Assembly: GCA_010093605.1 (NCBI GenBank)
Contig: MU004181.1
Location: 930,001-994,000 of the forward strand
Direction: 5' to 3'
Length of the DNA stretch: 64,000 bases
From: Lophium mytilinum
Lineage: Eukaryota
A program made the translations under genes and the position numbers. Positions 8,499 through 63,716 of the stretch are shown piece by piece; the first letter of the stretch is position 1, and every line of letters begins with the position of its first letter. The notes beneath the pieces are model-generated. The model was not told the DNA's origin. It made no database searches and was given only the letters and a program-made list of their open reading frames with translations.

Positions 8499-10260
8499 GG
8501 TGGGAAGGAGATCGAAGCTTAGGTTTCTTCTTATTTCAGTGTTGGTTAGGTCTTGTGGTGTGTGAGGGGTGATGATAGAGGCCAGCGTATTTTTGTAGCT
8601 CGGAGAATCAGTTATTGTAATATTACATACCAAGGGTTGGAGGATTCGTGGGTAGGTAGGTTGTGACGCTTGGTAAAGAGTTGATGCAACCATGGTTGAA
8701 CAATAAAAGTGACAATGTAAAGTAAGAAAACAAGCGTATCATCGAAACAGGTACTTTATCACAGTAAAACAAGCTCTGAAAGAAATAGTACAGAATGTAG
8801 AATTAACGTTTACAAAATTGAAGTCTGAAAATTGCAGCGTCAAAGTTAAGTGGGGGATGGGAATGGTCTAGGATACAAAGGGGCAGCGCATAGGCTTATT
8901 CAAAACATTGTTCATACATGAAAAGCGTCGAGAGACAAAGACAGATTAGAGATCAGATTAGAGATCAGAGGAGAGTCGAAGGTAAAAGGTTAAAAGGTTA
9001 AACAAAACGACAAGTTCTAAGACGAATGACCAGTGTGGTATCTAGACGGCGGCATCTTGACCGACAAGTATAGGGACGAAAGGAAGATGAGGTCACTGCC
9101 AGTGCAAGGCTGCGGCGGACTTCTTAAGACTCGGACAGATAGCCGGCGCTCGAGGGCTTGGGATCAGTAGAACTAGGGCGGCGCGGAGGCGACTGATAAC
9201 GGGAGGATGCAGAAACGGCCATGATCACGGCCCGACGGAGCCAGTCGCTCGTGAACGTGGCGCATCGTGAGGGTTCCACGGTTGGCCGTCCTAGAGGAGC
9301 AATGTGCAGGCCTCATTGCCCAACGTGCATCGATCCATTGGCCTCCACCCCTTGATTCTGTCGAGGCCGGTGCCGCTCGTGACCAGCAGAGCGGAGAGCC
9401 GAGAAGGTTCCCCAGATCTCTGTCGCGACGACCAGATTCTATCGCAGTGGTGTGACGTCGTGCATATGCTGCGAGATAGCGGTTGTGCCGGAGAACTGCA
9501 CTTGTCGACGCAGGAACAGCCAGCCTCTTCCAGCCATGAGGCTGTTTCGGGATATGTAATTGCGCCTTCGGCCACATTTGCGAAGATGAATGAGATATCG
9601 ATTATCGACTCCTAATTTCCGAATATCGGGTGTGGTTTGCGCTCGGGCGTCACTGATTGAGCACTGACTGAGGTCACGTGATGGTCGCACGTCTCTTGGC
9701 AGCCTCCTTCATCCATCTCTCATCCCTCAGCCTTCGAAGCTCCGTTCGCATGAAGACAAACATCTGCATCTAGACTAACTCAGCTTATATCACAAACTAC
9801 TAATCGAGGAGCGAGAGTGACGACTGACATGCCTCGAGGTCACAAGCTATCCCACCTGTTCTTTTGCATCGGCATCCGACAGCATCTGGAGACTTGACCG
9901 TAAAGCAGTTTCGAGTTTAGGGCATCGCGAAAGGCATCTCCACGGCGAGGTTTTGGAGGGATGCTCCCATTCTCTGCCCACCATGCCTTTGATTGATGGT
10001 CTGCAAACTTCCACACTCAAACTTCTAGCAATCGATCGTCATGTAGATGATCGGATCATATCTTACTGACTATCACCTCGACAATTGCTTCATTCCACCT
10101 GATACTTCCTGCTCTTAGTAATGACTAACAAAAAATTGTAAAGGGTAGTACTTCCACTGGCTATAAAAAGCGCGGGCATAAGGTGGTATCGATTCATTCC
10201 CAGCGCTGAGTTCTAAGACCAGGTATCCTGCCTTAGTATCCTGTCTCAGGCTAGCACCCG

Positions 10261-13200
10261 ATGGCACCGGTAACCCCAGAGAAGCCTCTTAGCAAGAGCT
10301 CACCGACCGCCTCAAAGAATTCCGCCTCTCCTAATACCCGGACCTCAGCGGATCGAAGTAAGACGACCCCAACGCCACCACCAACAGGCAAAACATTGCC
10401 CTCATCGACAGACCCGCGAAAGCGCCAGGACTCAGTGAGCTCGTCTTCACCTCCAACTCCTCCTTCCCGATCATCAAAGGCATCGTCTCCTGGCTCGAAA
10501 CTTGCGACTGGGTTATCAAATGTAGAGCTATCTCCCAAGTCCAAATCGTCAGATACATCCTCGTCAAGCACAACGGACGACAGGTTTCCAAAGTCCCGAC
10601 TTTCATCAGTCATTTACCACGACCGAGAGTTTCTGGGCGCAATCATATGCGACGTCAATCGCGGTCCCAAGCTTCAAGTCGTCAGTGTTCTGATCGAGAT
10701 TCCCAAGAAATACGAACACAACCGCAAACTACATCGTGCAATCTTTACAGAGCTGTTCAAAAGTGAACTATTTAGACTTTTTGAAAGCGATGGAGCGATA
10801 AATTTCAAGACTGGAATGCCTAAAACCGTGGATGCCAAACCTACGACGGGCAAAGCAACGATTTATGGCGAGCTCGTGATGACGGAAGAAAAAGCTAAGT
10901 TTCAAAAGCCGATTAAATCAATTCCAATCAAGGGGTTTATCAAGGGTAAAGGTGATGCTGTTGAAAACGCCATCTGTACCGTTGAAAAGGTTCAGACCTA
11001 CACCTTGGACGATCATGGGGAAGAATATCTTAAAAGACTAGAGGTTTTGTTAAGGAATTCTCCGAAGTCGACGTCAAGTGGAATTCATTCCTCAAAAGGC
11101 CAATTCTCGTATCCGAAGCCACCCCCAGGCTTCAAGAAGCGCAGCGTAGCGGCATTGAAAATCCACCCTAGGGTCGAATATGTTCCGTCTATCCAAAAAG
11201 TCGACAACAAAGCACAACTGCGCTTTGATTTTCGTGTCGGAGCCTATTACGACAGCTGCCCGGTCACCGAGATGCTGTTCAGCTACTTTGGAGAGACAGT
11301 CATGTGCAAGGGCCTCTGCCAAAACACGCCAACGCTTCGAAGACTAGAAAGCCTACTCGTCGGCCTACCCGTTCGCCGCTCATATGTTCCACTTTCGATA
11401 AAAGACCGAGGACCGCACAAGCGCGACGCGTCTAACAATGTGGAGAGTCGCGTATTGAAAGACTCTGAAGTCATGGATGAGGGCTTCCATATTGAAGCCC
11501 GCCGTTCTCGAATCAAAGCCGTAAAAATGCCTGCGGATATCTACCCATTCGAATTCACAGAGAAGGCAGAGGGCACGACGAAGATGACAGTAACGCGGTA
11601 CTTTGAAGGGTGTAAGTGAATATACCATGGGGAACTCAAACTGTCTGCTAATGCCGCCCAGACATCCGACCAGGGGCCGGCAACGGGCTGAAATTTCCTA
11701 ACCTCCCTCTCGCTAACATTGGCGGAACTAAAGAAGGTAGGGAAGCCTGGGTTCCATTGGAGTTTCTTTGGATTGAGCCCAATCAAAAAGTTCCTGTAAA
11801 GCTCTGTATCCTCCAAGGAGACTCCAAAGCCTTTAAGAAGTCGATTCCGCCTGAAAAGCCGACCGGTGGCAATGATGGAGATCGTTTCTTATCCAAGATA
11901 GCCGACGCTTGGCTCTGTGGCCCTTGGCTCGACGGTGGCACGAAAGATACAGTCGACAACAAGCACGTAGGTATTTGACCTCAGAATGACATTTCTCGAG
12001 CTGACAATTGCGTAGAAAATAAGATGGTCCAACCGAAAATTCGAGGAGCCACCAGAGAACCAACTACTTGAACTTGAGTCGCCACCTAAAACTGACGCTA
12101 AGCCTCGTGTGGAGACCCATGGCAAGGGACGCTTGGAGCGTTTTGGGCTGTTGAATCTGGTTTCTTTACAAGACCCCGATATAGAGGCTTTGGAAGACCG
12201 GTTTCGACTTGCAATCCCAGCGTTATCGAAAATGGTGTTGGGCTCCGTCAACAATCCTCCAAAGTATTGGCCTGGCCGGGTCAACGATACTACCGAGCTT
12301 CTTTCTGATCCTGATAAGTTTGCCAAGCACTTTGATTCGAAGACCCAAGGTGCCCTGCTCTGCCTCATGGACCCGGTGGGAAAAGATGCGAAAGAAGTTG
12401 CCAACGCAACCGCCGACTTTCACCGCTTTGGAGACCTCGTAGCGGGCGTACCAACTGTACACGCATCGAAGGCAGTTCTGGAAGCTTTACCAGAATGGAA
12501 AGATCAGGACTATTTCCCAGCAAACATTGCTCGAAAGCTGAAGTTCATGCTTGGTGGTACGAATTACCAGACAGACCTTGCCGCGAAGCTCAAGGACATG
12601 AAAGTGGACGGAGAGGTCATGGTAGTTGGTGCGCATATCGCTCACCCTGGAGCCGGGCCTACCGAAATGCTACAAACAATAGATGGACCACCGAAGATAG
12701 CATACCCCTCGATCGCTGCGGTGGTCGCCAGTGTCGACGACAAACTCGTACACTTCCCTGGATCTATGCGATTGCAGAGAACTTTCGACGCGGGAATTAA
12801 GGAGTCAAAGGATTCCAATCAAAAGCCGAAAGTGATTCGCACTACGAGAGTGCGAATCGATGATTTGAAGAAGATGATGGTAGAAAGGGTCCAAGCTTGG
12901 TCTAAGAGAAATGGCAAGAAGTCTCCGAAGAACATCCTTTTTTTTAGGGACGGTTTGACCCGAGAGATGGGTGACCTCATGACCCAGGTCGTGGATCAGG
13001 AATGCATGGCCATCAAGGACGCATTCCAGTCACTCAATCTTCAAAGTCCCGCAATCACCTATGTGGTCTTTACCAAGAAACTCAAACTACTCACTCATCC
13101 CGAATCTTCACCTGCGGGGCAGGTACCGTTCGAGTACACCAGGCTAGTAGCATCGACAGATGCTAAAACGGTTTCCCGCAAGAATTATCTCTACACCGTT

Positions 13201-13600
13201 CTCAAAGATGACATGAAGCTGGGCAAGGCCAATATGGAAGTCCTGGTAAGTTTATAATTCCAAGTGCCGTTAGAAAATCACGCAATCAGTATCACTAACC
13301 GTTCCCTAGACCGAAGCGCTCAACACTTCCTCCCAACTCGCGCGCCAAGTCGCCTGTGCACTTCCGGTACATTACGCCACCAAGCTCACCGCCCGCGGCT
13401 TCGAGTACATCCGAACACTCTCGGTGAACGACTATTCGCGACACCCGGATTTCGTGCCGCTGCTGGCTGGTGATAACTACAATGAGAAGGCCGACAAGGT
13501 GCTTGAGTACGTTCGCCAAGCTAAGTGGCTGTGGGGATGTGATGGAGAGAGGGGAAATCCTTGGAAGGAGCAGCTGGATGAGCTGATGTTCTATTTGTAG
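10261..13600 (+). CDS. Divergent Argonaute/PIWI-domain protein (PAZ-MID-PIWI), predicted catalytically inactive
   Basis: Exons 10261-11611, 11662-11966, 12016-13245, 13310-13600 join in frame (1058 aa). PAZ end LKFPNLPLANIGG..WVPLEFLWIEPNQ; MID ANIARKLKFMLGGTN; PIWI VMVVGAHIAHPG, PSIAAVVASVD, NILFFRDG, PVHYA; C-terminus LMFYL* as in fungal Argonautes. Confidence 0.9.
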
Positions 13601-51000: not shown

Positions 51001-53782
51001 GAACAATCGAATAGAACCCAACAAAAAGTCGTAGTGCCCAAGGACTATTTCGGAACCAACTAAAATTTTGGCCAAGCTACCACCAGTGGTACCGACTTCC
51101 AAGAGACGACTCCGAGCAAGCCAAGGCCAGACGCGATCAGGTGAGATTGAAACCATAGCGTGTATGAAGTGTGTACAGTTGACAAGTAGGTCCAGAGAGC
51201 CCTCGACGCCAGGTTGCTCGCACTGATGTTGTAGTTCTTGTTCGAAAATAGCGAATACGACACTGACAGTGTCTTCCGTTCGATCTGATTTTATGTTAAG
51301 GTGCTCGAGTAGTGCCTCCGAGAGCTCCTCGCCATCGCTACTCGTCTCAGCTGCTTTAATTGAGCAGTCAAGAAGGTCAGCAAAGAGACCGATGATTTCA
51401 GACGCATTGTCCAAAGAAGTGCGATCCTCAGTAGCATGTTCAACGTAGCCAGTGCCGGTCATGAATGTCGAAAGCAGGACTGCTAGGTATTTCAAAGCAG
51501 AGTGACGGTATTGCCAACTCGCAACAAAAGGCTGTACGCTGTTGTCGACAACTTGTCCTGCTGTACCTTGCGGAATGTACATCTCATCCTCGAACTGCAC
51601 ATGATTCTGGGGTTGATTGGACGCTGTTATTCGCCTCTGCTTCGTCCTGATTTTTTGAAACAGGGGGAGGTCTGACTTGAGGGCGATCCAATTTTCGTTT
51701 AGTTCTTCTCTGATAGATTCGTAATCATCGAAATGTTTTCGCATGGACTGCGAGAAATTCGTCACATTGGTGAGAAGTTCGCCAATTATGTCCTGTTTTA
51801 GTGTATCTCCTTGAAGGCTCTGAGCAATGACACTGCAGAATTTCATGAGGGGGACAGTCTCGTATGGATAGCGATACTGTGATTCTAGGATCAAGCTGGG
51901 AGACAAAACGTCAATGTCAGATAGGACGTAATCGACAATTGGATCACGTCGAGTGTCTGGGTTGCTTTCCAGCCAATCCCAGGAGCTTTGTCGAGGGGAC
52001 ATGATAGCCAAGGTGGCCCAGATGACATCAGGTGAGTACCTCACCAGCTTCAATCCTAAGCAGGCACGGAAGAGGTCCAGCAAAGTCTTTCGCTGTCGGT
52101 CAGCGGTTAAGATGTCGGTCCTCGTGCCAAATGTGGAGGTAACCATCTGAGCAAGTTCGGCGACTAGTGAGCAGACGCCAGTATTTGCGGCGTATTCGGC
52201 AAGACTTTGTGTGGTTGGGCTCTCGTCGGGATTTTCTCTGTCGTCAATGGCACTCCCGGCGTCCTCGAGTGGACTTGTCCCACTCGAGAGATCCACTCCA
52301 TCAGTTGCAATTCGGTTCTCGCGCTCAAAGACGATATCGCTGACAAGACATCGTAACGCAAATCCCAGGGTACCCCATGCTAAAATGACTGGACTCGCAG
52401 GACTTGGAAGCTCGGTGGTTCTGAAGATACCGCTTAGTTCACGAAGGCACCCTGGCTGTGAGATGTACGCGGAGCTTCCATCAAGACCGAATCTCTCTGA
52501 CTCTAGGTGTTCGAGGGCCTGAGGTATCTTAAGGATAGCTAAAGAGATCGTCGCGACGAACAATTGCATGAGAGGGACTAATGATATCTGACCGGGTAGA
52601 TTCTGCTCCCGACGTTAGCAAAACGCAGACACGTACTGGAGGTGGCGCTTACAAAGGGTATTTGGGCGAAGAAGCTCCATTTATCCATGAACTTGAACCA
52701 TTTAAGAGCTGCGTCGCCGGTTGGTAGATTCTCCGTGAAAATGTCGACGTGGGTGAACAATAGATGAAGGATATGGACAATCTCGACGACCTGATAGGTA
52801 TTCCAGGTTTCCTCCGCGGGCGACTGTATGGACTCTGGGATCTGCCATCCGGAACCTTGCTCCATAGCTTCCAAACGAGATTGGACAGCATCAATGTATG
52901 CAAAGAGGGGGTCCTGCTGAGGCGATGCGCTCTCGCGCGCTTTCCGCTGTAGCTGCAAGATTGTTTCGCCAACCTCTTCAACCCATGTTCTCTTAGAAGT
53001 ACTCTTTCCCCCGCCAGACCTCTGCTGTGTAGTCTTGATGGAACGCAAGTCTTCCGGAGCCGCTCTGCATATTAGGATTTGGCTGACACGCAGTATATGT
53101 GCTTTCTCGGAAACATGAAGGTCTAGGAGTCGTAATTGTCGTTGCTCGCGTGAGTTGAATAGGGATGTTGATTGCGCGGTCGCTCCAACCGGTGCAGCGA
53201 GAATCGAGGAATTGGCCCAGAATGTGGAGGCTCCCAGGTTGGATGATCCGGCAGCATCTTGCACGCTAATTGTCTCTTCTTCGGTGAAGCCGTTCAGCAG
53301 CTGTAATGTCGGTCGAATTTGCCATTCCAGAACGACTGTTCTCAGCGCTGAAACCTCATCGATCTTTGCGACACCCGACAGCCACAAAGCATCTTCCTTG
53401 ATCTCGTCAATGTTGTAGTGTCCATTGGGAGAGGGGGTCACGTTGATGGCAGCGGTTTCGGTTTCGAATTTGCCCTTGGCGCCTGGAGAGGGACCTTTGT
53501 AAGGTGCTAATGGATGGCTGAGGATGAGAACGCTGGTCCTGTCGGTGAGGAACGACCGGAGGACTTGGTTTTGGGCGGCATTTCCTGGGTCGCAGAGCGC
53601 ATTTCCTGGGTCGCAGAGGGCGGCGTATACGGCTTTCCAGGATCTGGCGCAGTTAGCACACTGGTCGGTTCGAAAGGTTGAAGCTATCCATAAACAGCGG
53701 GCTCCTACAGCAGATGCTTCTCCCCACTGAAGCATTCAGCCAGCGAAGGAAAGAAGACGTCCGGGGTCTCGATGGGAGCCAT
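48064..53782 (-). CDS. NUP188: Nucleoporin Nup188
   Basis: MAPIETPDVFFPSLAECFSGEKHLL|SWK; IKEDALWLS..IDEVSALRTVVLEWQ; ~1860-aa helical protein over three exons; IWARGILPLCLNLL near the C-terminus. Confidence 0.88.
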
Positions 53783-58843: not shown

Positions 58844-59360
58844 GAAAGTGGTTCTTGGGGGTGAGCTGGAGGTGGAGAGGGGGGAGGGCTCGAAGGTTGG
58901 GAGTTAGGTTGAAGGGGTAGGGGCGGAAGAGATATGGGGATTGGGGTGCTTTTGCCTGTGAGCTATTGCTTCGGAGTGCAGGTTGGGCATTGCGAGTTTG
59001 CGGTATCTTGGGTTATTATTGGAGCTTGGAGCTGCGAGCTCGAGGCTTGGTTTGAGGCTTTAGTCATGAGGGTAATGAGTTGGCGAGCAGAAACATCTGG
59101 CATGCACTCATACGGCATCTTCACAAAATACACATCTTATGAACCATGACAATGCTTGGTGTACTAGCTCAGATTTTTTATGTTGACCGGCTTCTGTCAA
59201 GACTGACACTGCAACATATGGTTGAGCTGAGTGGATATGCCGTGTGCATACGTAGACTGAGGTAGGACTACCCGAAGGTGAGTTTGAAGCATCCTGCCAA
59301 CCCAGACTTTCCGCCTATCTTGCGACCTATCGCTGTGAGAGTTGGACTGAACGGTTTGGT

Positions 59361-60122
59361 TCAGAGAGACTCCTTGTAACAAGGTTTCTCTTCTCGGGTG
59401 TGGTCGTGGAACTTGCATGCGGTGCTGCCAAGGCGTGTCCATCCATGTTGTGGATCTCTGATCTCGAAAGCCGCACGAGAAGATCCGCAGTAAACTCTGA
59501 GGGGACGAAAAACTTTCCAAGCTCCCTGCTTTTATCGGCCTTCAATCGGGTGGCAGCGACTTCCACTACTAACCGCCTCAACGGGGATCCAGCCAGCGTC
59601 TCATTGTATACAATTCCGATGTCCCCCAAGTGAAAGGTAGCGAGCTGCGGTGAGTCATATAGGTGGACAAGCATGTCCATGACGGCGTCCTTGAAGTTTG
59701 TGTCCAAGATGCGCTCTCCAAGGAGCCAACACTTGATGAGACCGGATACCTCCTTCCTGGCTACCTCGTCCCTCTTCTCGAGCGATTCTTCAAGGCCAAT
59801 CTCTCCTGAGGTATGGATTTTGCGAGAATAGATCCAGGAGCAGTAGATTCTGAACTGGTCAGGTGAAGTCTCTGGGAGCGGCACGACACCGTCAACAGAT
59901 TCACGCCAGCCGCCTCGCAGAGCACCAGCGAAGAACCCAGAGCTCTCGCGAAGTAGATTCTCGTGAACGAAGAAGTCTTCAGACTTGTTTGGAGGGCCGA
60001 CCCGGACGATCACGGTCGGAGAACTAAAGCTAAATGGATGTCAGCTATTATGGTCCACCACTCTCTTCATTGTCGACAACGTACTCGAGGACTTTGGAGG
60101 CGGGACGTCGGATATCAGCCAT
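59361..60122 (-). pseudogene. BTB/POZ-domain gene with an apparent 1-nt frameshift near its 3' end (or a sequencing error)
   Basis: Exon 60122-60085, intron 60084-60030; BTB motifs FFVHENLLRESSGFFAGALRGGWRES. The paralog-matching tail CKFHDH..PCYKESL* lies in another frame from ~59466; the unshifted frame ends at 59327. Confidence 0.7.
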
Positions 60123-61484: not shown

Positions 61485-62247
61485 TCAGGTGTCCTTATAG
61501 CACGCTTTGCCTTCCCTCTTGTGCTCGTGGAACGCGCAGGGGTTTTTAAGCCATTGTGGTTTGTTATCGCGGTTCTTGCCTCGTACTGCGGCGAGTCCGT
61601 GCAAGAGTTCCTGGAGAAATTCCCGAGGTAGTTCCACATCTCCGTAATGGTCGATGAATTCCTCGGTGCACTGTTGAACGATCTGCTCGATGATGAAACG
61701 CCTGAGCATGGATCCAGGCAACGTCTCTTTGTATATCACTGCTACGTCGGCCTTCGCATTGATGAACGAGGGAGCGTCTTCGACTAAGTGAATGAGTGCA
61801 TCCATGACCGTGTCCATGAATTTTGTGTCCATGAGACGCTGTCCCATCGTCCAACACCGAACGAGACTCGACATCTCCCCCTTGAACTCGGTTTCGACTT
61901 GCGGCTGTACCGGCTTCTTGTCATAGCCGTCTGGGGCGCTATAGATCTTGCCAGAATAGAGCCAATGGAAGTAGATGTTGAAATGGTCTGGTGAGAGGTC
62001 TGGAAGTGGGATCACCCGCTCAATCGATTCGCGCCATTCGCCTCGGAGAGCAGCGGCGAAGAAGTCTGAGCTCTTGACGAGAAAGGAGTCGTGGATCAGA
62101 AAATCCTGAGAGCGGTTTGTAGAGCTGACTCGAACAGTGACCACGGTCGATCCTATGCTAACTTGTGTTAGTATGCACGTATTTGTTCAACTGGATTCGG
62201 AGAGCTTGCCCGACTGCCTGGGAGGCGGGACGCCGGACTTCGGTCAT
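61485..62247 (-). CDS. BTB/POZ-domain protein (paralog of 59361-60122)
   Basis: MTEVRRPASQAVG|IGSTVVTVRV; FLIHDSFLVKSSDFFAAALRGEWRES; C-terminal CAFHEH..CYK; GC-AG intron 62209-62158. Confidence 0.88.
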
Positions 62248-62740
62248 CTTGGCTTGCAAGAGTAATAAGATGAAAATAGGAGAGACAGCAGAGTGTGGCC
62301 GAAGGATCTACGAAGTAGGCTGTGATATGATGTGATATGCTGTGGTGGTGGTTGTGGTTGTGAGGAGGGATGTCCTTGCTACGGTACGAAAGATTCAGCC
62401 ATTTATATATTAGCTCCCCCAAAACTTGCTTGCTGTCAGTGAATCGACCACGAATTCCCATTTTCATCGTGTGGAAAAAGACACCGAATCGGGAGGGATG
62501 GAGAATCCAGAGAGAGAAGAAAGGTAGCAGCAATGAGCTGCTACTCTTCAAGCAAAGCTTAACGGAGCTAGAACAAAGATGTTGAAAGCTCGTAGCGTTA
62601 GCAATAGCACTAAAGCACACATAATCCATCAACTCGGTCACATCACGCTTCCAACGCCAAAGTCTTCATCCTAAAACCCACAAAAACAACACCCACCAAA
62701 AAAACAAACCCTCAACCCTCACCCCATCTATCAGAAGAGC

Positions 62741-62747
62741 AAAAAAA
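62741..62747 (-). terminator. RNA polymerase III terminator (T7)
   Basis: TTTTTTT three bases after the tRNA discriminator base. Confidence 0.85.
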
Positions 62748-62750
62748 GAT

Positions 62751-62888
62751 TACTCGGACTGAGGTTTGAACTCAGGACCTTCAGTGCAACTAATGTTACT
62801 GCTTTGGTATTAGTATTGAAAACCTCGAATGCGGTTTGGAACTGGGATAACCTACGACTGACGTGATAACCAACTACACCATCCGAGC
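62751..62888 (-). tRNA. tRNA-Val(AAC) gene interrupted by a 57-nt spliceosomal-type intron (62855-62799) and a 7-nt canonical tRNA intron (62793-62787)
   Basis: Acceptor stem GCTCGGA/TCCGAGT plus A73; A-box/D arm TGGTGTAGTTGGTTATCAC; anticodon stem TCAGT/ACTGA; variable loop AGGTC; T arm CTGAG-TTCAAAC-CTCAG. Removing both inserts gives loop C-T-AAC-A-C and a 74-nt cloverleaf with typical Val features. Confidence 0.88.
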
Positions 62889-63716
62889 TTAATAAGCGGT
62901 ATCAAATATAATTGCAGCTATCATCTAAGAGGCTCGGGAGGTGCGAGATGATGGCGTTGGTGATGATGTGTTGGCGGTGTGAATATTGCAAGGAGGAGTG
63001 GAGTAGGAAGTGTGAGGATGCCCCGCTGACCTTTCCGCATTCGGCTGGGGAGGGGGCAGTCAAATGATTTGACTGCGAGCTGTAGCATCTAATATTAGGG
63101 GGAACGCAACGTTATGTACATAGAGCGCCCCTGTTTTGCTACTAGCATCGATCGTTCTAGGTGATAGTCATGATCCAACAAATAATACTCTTTTTCTTCG
63201 CGATTCAAGATTTTCTACGTATAATGGAACGCATGTCAATTCAATAGCATTGTGATGTCCAACTACGGTTAGAGATCTGATCCTCATAATTTTTGAACAT
63301 TTCGACTGGATGTACGGCTGTACCTTCAAAAAGTTCACAAGTCAGCATAGAGGCACGAGTTTAGCATTGAAAGCCACGAAGAAGCGTGGCGCATATTCTT
63401 TACTTATTTGTACAATAGCAGTATTAATATCCTGGGTGGAGAGCATAACCAACTCGTAAATCCATCCCGCTGTATAGCCAAAGAAATCATGTCGATGAGA
63501 ACGTAAGCATATCCAGGCGCCATCCTAACCCGAGCCCAAGAAACCTGTCCTGTGAAGCCTAAAAGAAACCCCATAGAGTGAAACAAAAAAGAGATAGATG
63601 TGAAGGGCCGGCTATGAACACTCCTAATATCACAGGTGCTGAGCGTGAAGAGGTACGTATGCTTGCACTGTATCACGCTATACCCAAAAAGAAATCGATG
63701 AACCAACTGCCGTCTC

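Follow-up and report, generated by a model that had tools for sequence, protein, structure and literature searches.

Within a 64,000-nucleotide (nt) stretch of the genome of Lophium mytilinum (assembly GCA_010093605.1, contig MU004181.1, positions 930,001 to 994,000; this whole stretch is called the window below), the minus strand from position 62751 to position 62888 is a gene for the valine transfer RNA (tRNA) with anticodon AAC, tRNA-Val(AAC), carrying both a 57-nt and a 7-nt insert. The longer insert is probably a genuine U2-type GT-AG spliceosomal intron that splits this nuclear gene between C32 and U33, and that would be excised by the spliceosome as the tRNA matures. This reading is preferred because a contig in a public sequencing run, X3, joins the two flanks of the insert exactly and because homologous genes conserve an insert of the same kind. 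The window has the character of a filamentous-ascomycete genome, with genes for a HET-domain protein, a trifunctional trpC-type enzyme, Nup188 and an Argonaute protein with a Piwi domain.

Layout of the gene and splice signals of its inserts

With both inserts removed the gene folds into a clean cloverleaf, comprising an acceptor stem of 7 base pairs (bp) with G1 opposite U72, a D arm with the loop AGTTGGTTA, an anticodon stem of 5 bp, the variable loop AGGTC, a T arm with the canonical loop TTCAAAC (in which T54, Psi55, C56 and A58 are all present) and discriminator A. As the genomic sequence stands, the two strands of the anticodon stem are separated by 71 bases as against the normal 7, and no single deletion gives a normal anticodon loop, while deletion of 62855-62799 together with 62793-62787 yields the loop C-U-A-A-C-A-C. 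The borders of the 57-nt insert are set by the need to restore this loop and are unable to slide, and they fall on GT and AG. A first-pass annotation of the window, made from the letters of the sequence, had described a spliceosomal-type intron in the anticodon loop accompanied by an insert at the canonical tRNA intron site, and had held that GT-AG excision restores U33, the anticodon AAC and A37 and leaves 7 nt at position 37/38; the layout confirms both statements (Table 1). Box A- and box B-like sequences are found in the gene when it is judged by eye against the consensus.

Table 1. Features of the tRNA-Val(AAC) locus, in window positions, and of three homologous genes from metagenomes
Feature	Position	Strand	Remarks
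tRNA-Val(AAC) gene with both inserts	62751..62888	minus	138 nt, G1 to discriminator A73
5' exon	62856..62888	minus	33 nt, positions 1-32: acceptor strand, D arm and anticodon-stem strand, C32 last
57-nt spliceosomal-type intron, site 32/33	62799..62855	minus	GTAGGT, TACTAAT, CAG; skipped in the X3 contig
Donor GTAGGT	62850..62855	minus	read from the sequence
Branch-site motif TACTAAT	62809..62815	minus	intron positions 41-47; branch A followed by 11 nt to the intron end
Acceptor CAG	62799..62801	minus	sequence and X3 joint
5-nt micro-exon	62794..62798	minus	U33, A34, A35, C36, A37 (anticodon AAC); joined straight to C32 in the X3 contig
7-nt insert, canonical 37/38 site	62787..62793	minus	presumed endonuclease-type tRNA intron
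3' exon	62751..62786	minus	C38, anticodon-stem strand, variable loop, T arm (loop TTCAAAC), acceptor strand, A73
T7 run	62741..62747	minus	RNA polymerase III (Pol III)-type terminator, 3 nt past the discriminator
TATA-like TTATATTT	62904..62911	minus	16-23 nt 5' of the gene; presumed role
Share of the locus in the spliced X3 contig	62300..62970	minus, presumed from the GT..AG orientation	contig continues 983 nt past 62300
Homologue L001			insert 56 nt; donor GTGAGG; branch TACTAAC, with CTAAC 12 nt from the end; acceptor CAG; T5 after the gene
Homologue L004			insert 58 nt; donor GTGAGT; branch TACTAAC, with CTAAC 12 nt from the end; acceptor CAG; T6 after the gene
Homologue L003			insert 50 nt; donor GTAAGT; branch TGCTAAC, with CTAAC 9 nt from the end; acceptor TAG; T7 after the gene

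The splice signals of the 57-nt insert can be compared with those of ten candidate messenger RNA (mRNA) introns of the window, which were derived by joining neighbouring open reading frames (ORFs) rather than from transcripts. The ten are 49-68 nt long, and the candidate mRNA introns of the window as a whole 47-68 nt. Between the branch A and the intron end there are 8-14 nt, except in the candidate of the trpC-type gene, where there are 26. The donors of the ten are GTAAGT, GTGAGT, GTAGGT, GTAAGC, GTATGT or GTTCGT, mostly one of the first three, and their branch motifs, mostly CTAAC, CTAAT or CTGAC, lie 8-14 nt from the end in nine of the ten. The fungal branch-site consensus CTRAY fits most of them. 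At 57 nt the insert lies within the range of these introns, as the first-pass annotation had said and as a U2-type intron should, and it has the 5' GT with G at +5, the CTRAY branch motif and the 3' YAG of that class. A random insert would show GT, G at +5, CTRAY 5-35 nt from its end and AG with a chance of about 1e-4, by simple arithmetic at equal base frequencies. The donor had also been likened to that of the second Argonaute intron, and the candidate intron at 11967-12015 does begin with GTAGGT. The Argonaute gene itself, on the plus strand at 10255-13309, has three candidate short introns in all (11612-11661, 11967-12015 and 13246-13309). Another mRNA intron of the window is placed at 52603-52652.

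The introns of tRNAs typically pair with the anticodon, and the last four bases of the 7-nt insert pair with U33-C36 in the fold predicted after removal of the 57 nt. In site as well as in anticodon pairing the insert thus resembles a canonical 37/38 intron, and its length falls within the 6-133 nt given for canonical eukaryotic tRNA introns (PMC4090602). It differs from such introns in that it reaches position 37/38 only after the 57 nt have been removed. Its removal is presumed to be the work of the tRNA endonuclease and ligase. The single long X3 contig still contains it, and a short mature RNA would not appear in data of that kind.

The contig of run X3 that lacks the 57 nt and the probable transcript behind it

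Three public runs contain the region 62300-63400. Two of them, X1 and X2, come from one sample, which is probably the source of this DNA, and their contigs span the region in one piece with the intron included, and none of them has the joint described below. The third, X3, carries another organism label, contains a fraction of 0.49 of the words that were sampled and has the tag 'RNA? (a guess: may be DNA)'. Its record 6, a contig of 1597 nt at depth 92.3, matches 62300-62798 and 62856-62970 with no other letters and no gap between the two blocks, so that exactly 62799-62855 is skipped. On the plus strand the skipped segment has the ends CT..AC, equivalent to GT..AG on the minus strand. The joint has no ambiguous letters and its shorter side measures 115 nt, and there are no mismatches over the 614 flanking bases. 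The joint from 62798 to 62856 is thus the exact removal, at GT and AG borders, that splicing would give, with the RNA status of the run standing as a guess. The same contig keeps the 7-nt insert at 62787-62793, and in it the junction that had been proposed as a test, with 57 nt out and 7 nt kept, is found.

X3 is probably RNA. This assessment draws on the tool's guess, on contig depths, on the way its contigs end without loose ends and on their fit to an ORF for a BTB-domain protein downstream of the tRNA. Over the same stretch the depths of X3 contigs are 92, 38, 465, 28 and 651, as against flat values of 187 in X1 and 160 in X2. Record 6 stops at 62970 and record 10 starts at 63360, neither with loose ends, and the start of record 10 lies 357 nt past the stop of a minus-strand ORF. 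The gaps in X3 cover at 62971-63081 and 63181-63359 are no proof by themselves.

If X3 were DNA, its contig would represent an exact intron-less allele, and if the intron is also old, an exact intron loss. One form of this idea is that X3 is the DNA of a strain without the 57 nt and that the insert is a recent introner-type mobile unit that has broken the tRNA gene. The guessed RNA label and the differing organism label would suit such a polymorphism, whereas the very uneven depths of X3, the contigs that end where those of the DNA runs continue and the lack of any mismatch in 614 flanking bases all speak against it. Even with X3 as DNA, so exact a loss is one usually attributed to spliced complementary DNA (cDNA), the common explanation of exact intron loss, and the polymorphism is very unlikely on this evidence taken together with the comparison of homologues given below.

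The molecule behind record 6 is not a short one. Its start lies 82 nt 5' of the gene and closely follows a CT-rich block at 62991-63010. Past the T-run it continues for no less than 450 nt, and probably for about 1.4 kilobases (kb), into the BTB ORF; if the contig is colinear with the window throughout, record 6 ends at about 61317, which is 168 nt past the stop of the BTB-domain ORF at 61485-62144. Its spliced leader contains several short upstream ORFs. In its extent the molecule looks like a transcript of RNA polymerase II (Pol II) and not like a Pol III precursor, although the gene keeps Pol III-type features in its box A- and box B-like sequences, the TATA-like TTATATTT and a T-run right after the discriminator. 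The first-pass annotation had envisaged a Pol III transcript that undergoes spliceosomal and then endonucleolytic splicing: the removal of the 57 nt is supported, while Pol III and the endonuclease step are suppositions, the only molecule seen being long, Pol II-like and still in possession of the 7 nt.

The serious rival to the spliceosomal tRNA intron, though itself rather unlikely, starts from this molecule. It holds that the tRNA is an exapted or relic element within a Pol II 5' leader, either of the BTB mRNA or of a non-coding RNA, that the 57 nt are an ordinary leader intron, that no valine tRNA is made, and that the conserved structure has some other role, for example as a processing or stability element. 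Such a relic is consistent with the extent of the only transcript-like molecule, which reaches from 62970 past 62300 without stopping at the T-run, with the CT-rich block just upstream of the contig end, with the short upstream ORFs of the leader and with the 7 nt retained in the contig. Against this, standard RNA sequencing would miss a mature tRNA even if one were made, and the homologues supply further points on both sides.

Homologous genes with an insert at the same site

Metagenomes were scanned with an 18-nt pattern made of the last 16 bases of the 5' exon plus GT, so that only the GT of the insert was imposed. Seven loci matched. Three of them (L001, L003 and L004), which represent two further lineages, are genes for tRNA-Val(AAC) in which site 32/33 likewise holds an insert. 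The other four are unrelated chance matches and not tRNA genes. In other collections the pattern matched three prokaryote-genome sequences and one viral contig, none of them a tRNA. The 16-nt identity of the 5'-exon ends of the three genes with that of the window gene was a consequence of the pattern, which by contrast did not dictate G at +5, CTAAC at 9-12 nt from the intron end or AG right before U33. It had been predicted that orthologous loci should keep donor, branch site and acceptor, and these three do so, at position 32/33 in each case. The second, 7-nt insert is absent from all three.

L001 and L004 are closely related to one another, with exons identical at 73 of 73 positions, introns that match in 53 of 58 columns, and downstream flanks that align with 263 matches, 24 mismatches and 36 gap columns over 323 columns. 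Their acceptor stem resembles that of the window gene, with one compensatory pair (G5-C68 versus A5-T68). When the interior of the window intron is shuffled with its splice motifs kept, 15 and 31 of 2000 shuffles reach the observed scores against L001 and L004, respectively. The window insert is therefore old and not recent, because a sequence-similar intron occupies the same site in these two genes. L003 has different acceptor and T stems, a canonical T loop, TTCGAGT, and a long T-run, and its intron has no detectable sequence similarity to the other three; by sequence it would be either of far greater age or the result of a separate gain at this site. Synteny adds nothing to these comparisons, as only the tRNA itself aligns between the three loci and the window and the flanks are too short.

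Across the four genes 95.2% of the cells of the cloverleaf alignment are paired, 7 of the 21 pairs have changed on both sides, and none of 500 shuffles reaches the covariation score; slid controls of the same alignment are 24-41% paired. From this degree of pairing and the seven compensatory pairs it follows that the cloverleaf has been kept while the intron was in place. The seven compensatory pairs also count against a relic in a Pol II leader, as do the T-run right after the discriminator in four of four genes, which a purely Pol II element would not need, and the canonical 7-nt T loop and, by eye, all invariant tRNA positions, which are kept in the window gene and L003. In favour of the relic, the exons of L001 and L004 are conserved even though their T loop has 5 nt, a length that ought not to be tolerated in a standard tRNA. 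It may be that these two loci (both at 400-560) specify a tRNA-like RNA under selection with a non-standard T arm.

The age of the insert bears on the polymorphism considered above. A copy of the first 48 nt of the insert, 81% identical, exists elsewhere in the genome, as would be expected of a multiplying family of introns. The similar intron at the same site in L001 and L004 makes the insert old, however, and introner-like elements are said to exceed regular introns in length and to number hundreds of copies (PMC3609843), whereas this insert is of regular length and has no other copy in the window.

A further alternative is that the tRNA splicing endonuclease removes both inserts by way of a structure resembling a bulge-helix-bulge, as in tRNAs of red algae and nucleomorphs, and that the GT-AG ends are a coincidence. 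Non-canonical and multiple tRNA introns do occur in some eukaryotes (PMC4090602), and an endonuclease acting with a ligase would likewise leave an exact joint. A simple scan for 3-nt bulges at the two borders around a 4-bp central helix, with an outer helix of at least 2 bp, found no bulge-helix-bulge arrangement in any of the four genes, the best cases having 4 central pairs with 0-1 outer pairs (L001 and L004) or 3 central pairs and no outer ones (the window gene and L003). All four moreover share a conserved donor, branch site and acceptor in introns that otherwise diverge, and the contig has lost the 57 nt and kept the canonical 7 nt, the reverse of what a single endonuclease would be expected to do. 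Taken together these observations make an endonuclease origin of the 57-nt removal scarcely credible. Runs of at least five T are found in none of the four tRNA introns and in none of the ten candidate mRNA introns, a comparison that is uninformative on selection against Pol III termination.

Just 3' of the tRNA at L004:502-570, and in L001 as well, there are two short hairpins that are kept between the two loci, and a sub-threshold match to the Rfam family SmY lies there. The L004 matches to SmY (22.3 bits, cutoff 39) and to sR10 (20.8 bits, cutoff 45) are both below threshold and were taken as noise.

Proposed maturation, precedents and detection

Several observations weigh against a working tRNA gene with a spliceosomal intron and have to be set beside the evidence for one. 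G1 pairs with U72 in the window gene. The sole molecule seen is long and retains the 7 nt, and so displays no Pol III precursor and no mature tRNA; that X3 is RNA is the guess of a tool together with inference, no run being recorded as RNA. The extra 7 nt are unique to the window gene and could have disabled it. The T loop of L001 and L004 is 5 nt long (TTAGT) and has no C56 or A58, which would be unusual in a functional tRNA and makes for a weaker box B promoter; this loop is conserved between the two. The dissimilar intron of L003 does not support a common origin across all lineages, and the conservation of the exons could partly reflect gene conversion from other copies. Uninterrupted Val(AAC) copies, if the genome has any, would make this copy dispensable.

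In the maturation scheme that is proposed for the spliceosomal reading, the spliceosome would remove the 57 nt from a tRNA-containing transcript whose start lies about 82 nt upstream, and which passes the T-run and is probably a Pol II product that also covers the downstream BTB-domain ORF. A Pol III precursor may be spliced too, as with U6 of fission yeast. RNase P and RNase Z would then free the tRNA, and in this species the tRNA endonuclease and ligase would also cut out the residual 7-nt intron at 37/38 to give a valine tRNA. A wider proposal, put forward only tentatively and as a single joint claim, is that a lineage-spanning class of fungal tRNA-Val(AAC) matures only via the spliceosome; that in this species the actions of the spliceosome and then the endonuclease flank a 5-nt exon bearing the anticodon; that Pol II may make the precursor as part of one transcript with a protein-coding gene; and that the intron may derive from reverse splicing at the CTAAC of the loop and may have seeded a copy in another gene. 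Were this so, the supply of valine tRNA would, through a Pol II precursor shared with a protein gene, be tied to mRNA splicing. A conserved spliceosomal intron in a tRNA would in itself make the gene a natural substrate that needs two splicing machineries in order, would bring tRNA into the short list of non-coding hosts of spliceosomal introns (U6, U1, U2, U5 and ribosomal RNA), and would provide a dated case of how introns are gained and copied.

Nuclear introns of the three kinds are regarded as unconnected with one another, and those of tRNAs are assigned to the endonuclease alone. The nearest precedent is the U6 small nuclear RNA (snRNA) gene of fission yeast, which has an mRNA-type intron (Tani and Ohshima 1989, 1991, cited in PMC5855946) and is likewise a fungal gene for a small, highly structured, Pol III-type non-coding RNA with a GT-AG spliceosomal intron. 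The origin of the U6 intron has been proposed to lie in reverse splicing (PMC5855946). U6 differs in being a component of the spliceosome that sits beside its catalytic centre, where a tRNA has no known place in the spliceosome, and the window gene differs in turn by having a second intron of another class 5 nt away. Spliceosomal introns have also been described in the U1, U2 and U5 snRNA genes of Rhodotorula hasegawae and in ascomycete ribosomal DNA (PMC5855946); these resemble the present case as introns of fungal genes that do not code for protein, and differ in that none of them lies in a tRNA. Nor is tRNA among the non-coding hosts listed in the available part of that review of U6.

The tRNAs of Cyanidioschyzon merolae and of nucleomorphs share with the window gene introns away from 37/38, sometimes two or three in a gene, and differ in that theirs need a bulge-helix-bulge and the tRNA endonuclease (PMC4090602), whereas the window gene has spliceosomal signals and no such motif. 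For a nuclear tRNA made from a Pol II transcript, tRNA-Sec of Trypanosoma brucei provides a precedent, although in another organism, without an intron and within a polycistronic system of transcription (PMC2943599). The first-pass annotation knew of no description of a spliceosomal intron in a tRNA, and a search of the full-text literature, with subscription journals and supplements outside its scope, likewise found none; there was none in the available parts of PMC12530127, PMC10275265, PMC4090602, PMC5855946, PMC11146597, PMC13148404, PMC11782384 and PMC13578239. A review of tRNA introns from 2014 contains no occurrence of 'spliceosom' (PMC4090602), a tRNA review from 2023 mentions the spliceosome once, only as a contrast to tRNA splicing (PMC10275265), and a 2026 review of tRNA gene repertoires never mentions it.

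As to origin, the restored anticodon loop reads CTAAC, the letters of the fungal branch-site motif, and the intron lies inside it (C|TAAC, window 62794-62798 with 62856). The presence of CTAAC in the Val(AAC) loop might explain reverse splicing into this particular tRNA, which is offered as an idea. The first 48 nt of the intron (window 62808-62855) have a copy elsewhere in the genome, on record 2 of X1 (11.8 kb) and record 4 of X2 (13.4 kb), with 9 differences in 48 nt. The match ends exactly at the first base of the intron, the flank before it ends in CAG, and a CAG stands 57 nt after the start. By its sequence this second copy resembles a sister intron, equal in length and situated in a different gene. 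Its flank is absent from the window, and no further copies of the 57-nt intron were found there.

The behaviour of standard tools at this locus accords with the expectation of the first-pass annotation that tRNA finders would mis-call it. ARAGORN at default settings finds no tRNA anywhere in the 64-kb window, and with introns allowed it mis-calls the gene as Gly(acc). Rfam's tRNA model gives no match, at the gathering threshold or at E<=1, in the genomic sequence of the window, L001, L003 or L004, as is expected of unspliced sequence with an insert of 50-64 nt. The comparison of unspliced with in-silico spliced sequence that had been suggested was run with ARAGORN: with the 57 nt removed the 7-nt insert is misplaced and Asn(att) is called, and with both inserts removed a clean 74-nt tRNA-Val(AAC) is returned. 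If the spliceosomal reading is correct, counts of fungal tRNA genes would be too low wherever they are made with standard tools.

Two features of the neighbourhood may be added. The minus-strand ORFs at 59327-60013 and 61485-62144 are tandem paralogues, the second of which matches the BTB/POZ domain and lies inside the same X3 contig, downstream of the tRNA; both are without an in-frame ATG at the start, and a first exon is missing from both models. Upstream of the tRNA, a 46-nt stretch at 63135-63180 recurs in diverged form, with 7 differences, on further contigs of X2 and X3, those of X3 being of high depth, and appears to be a small dispersed repeat.

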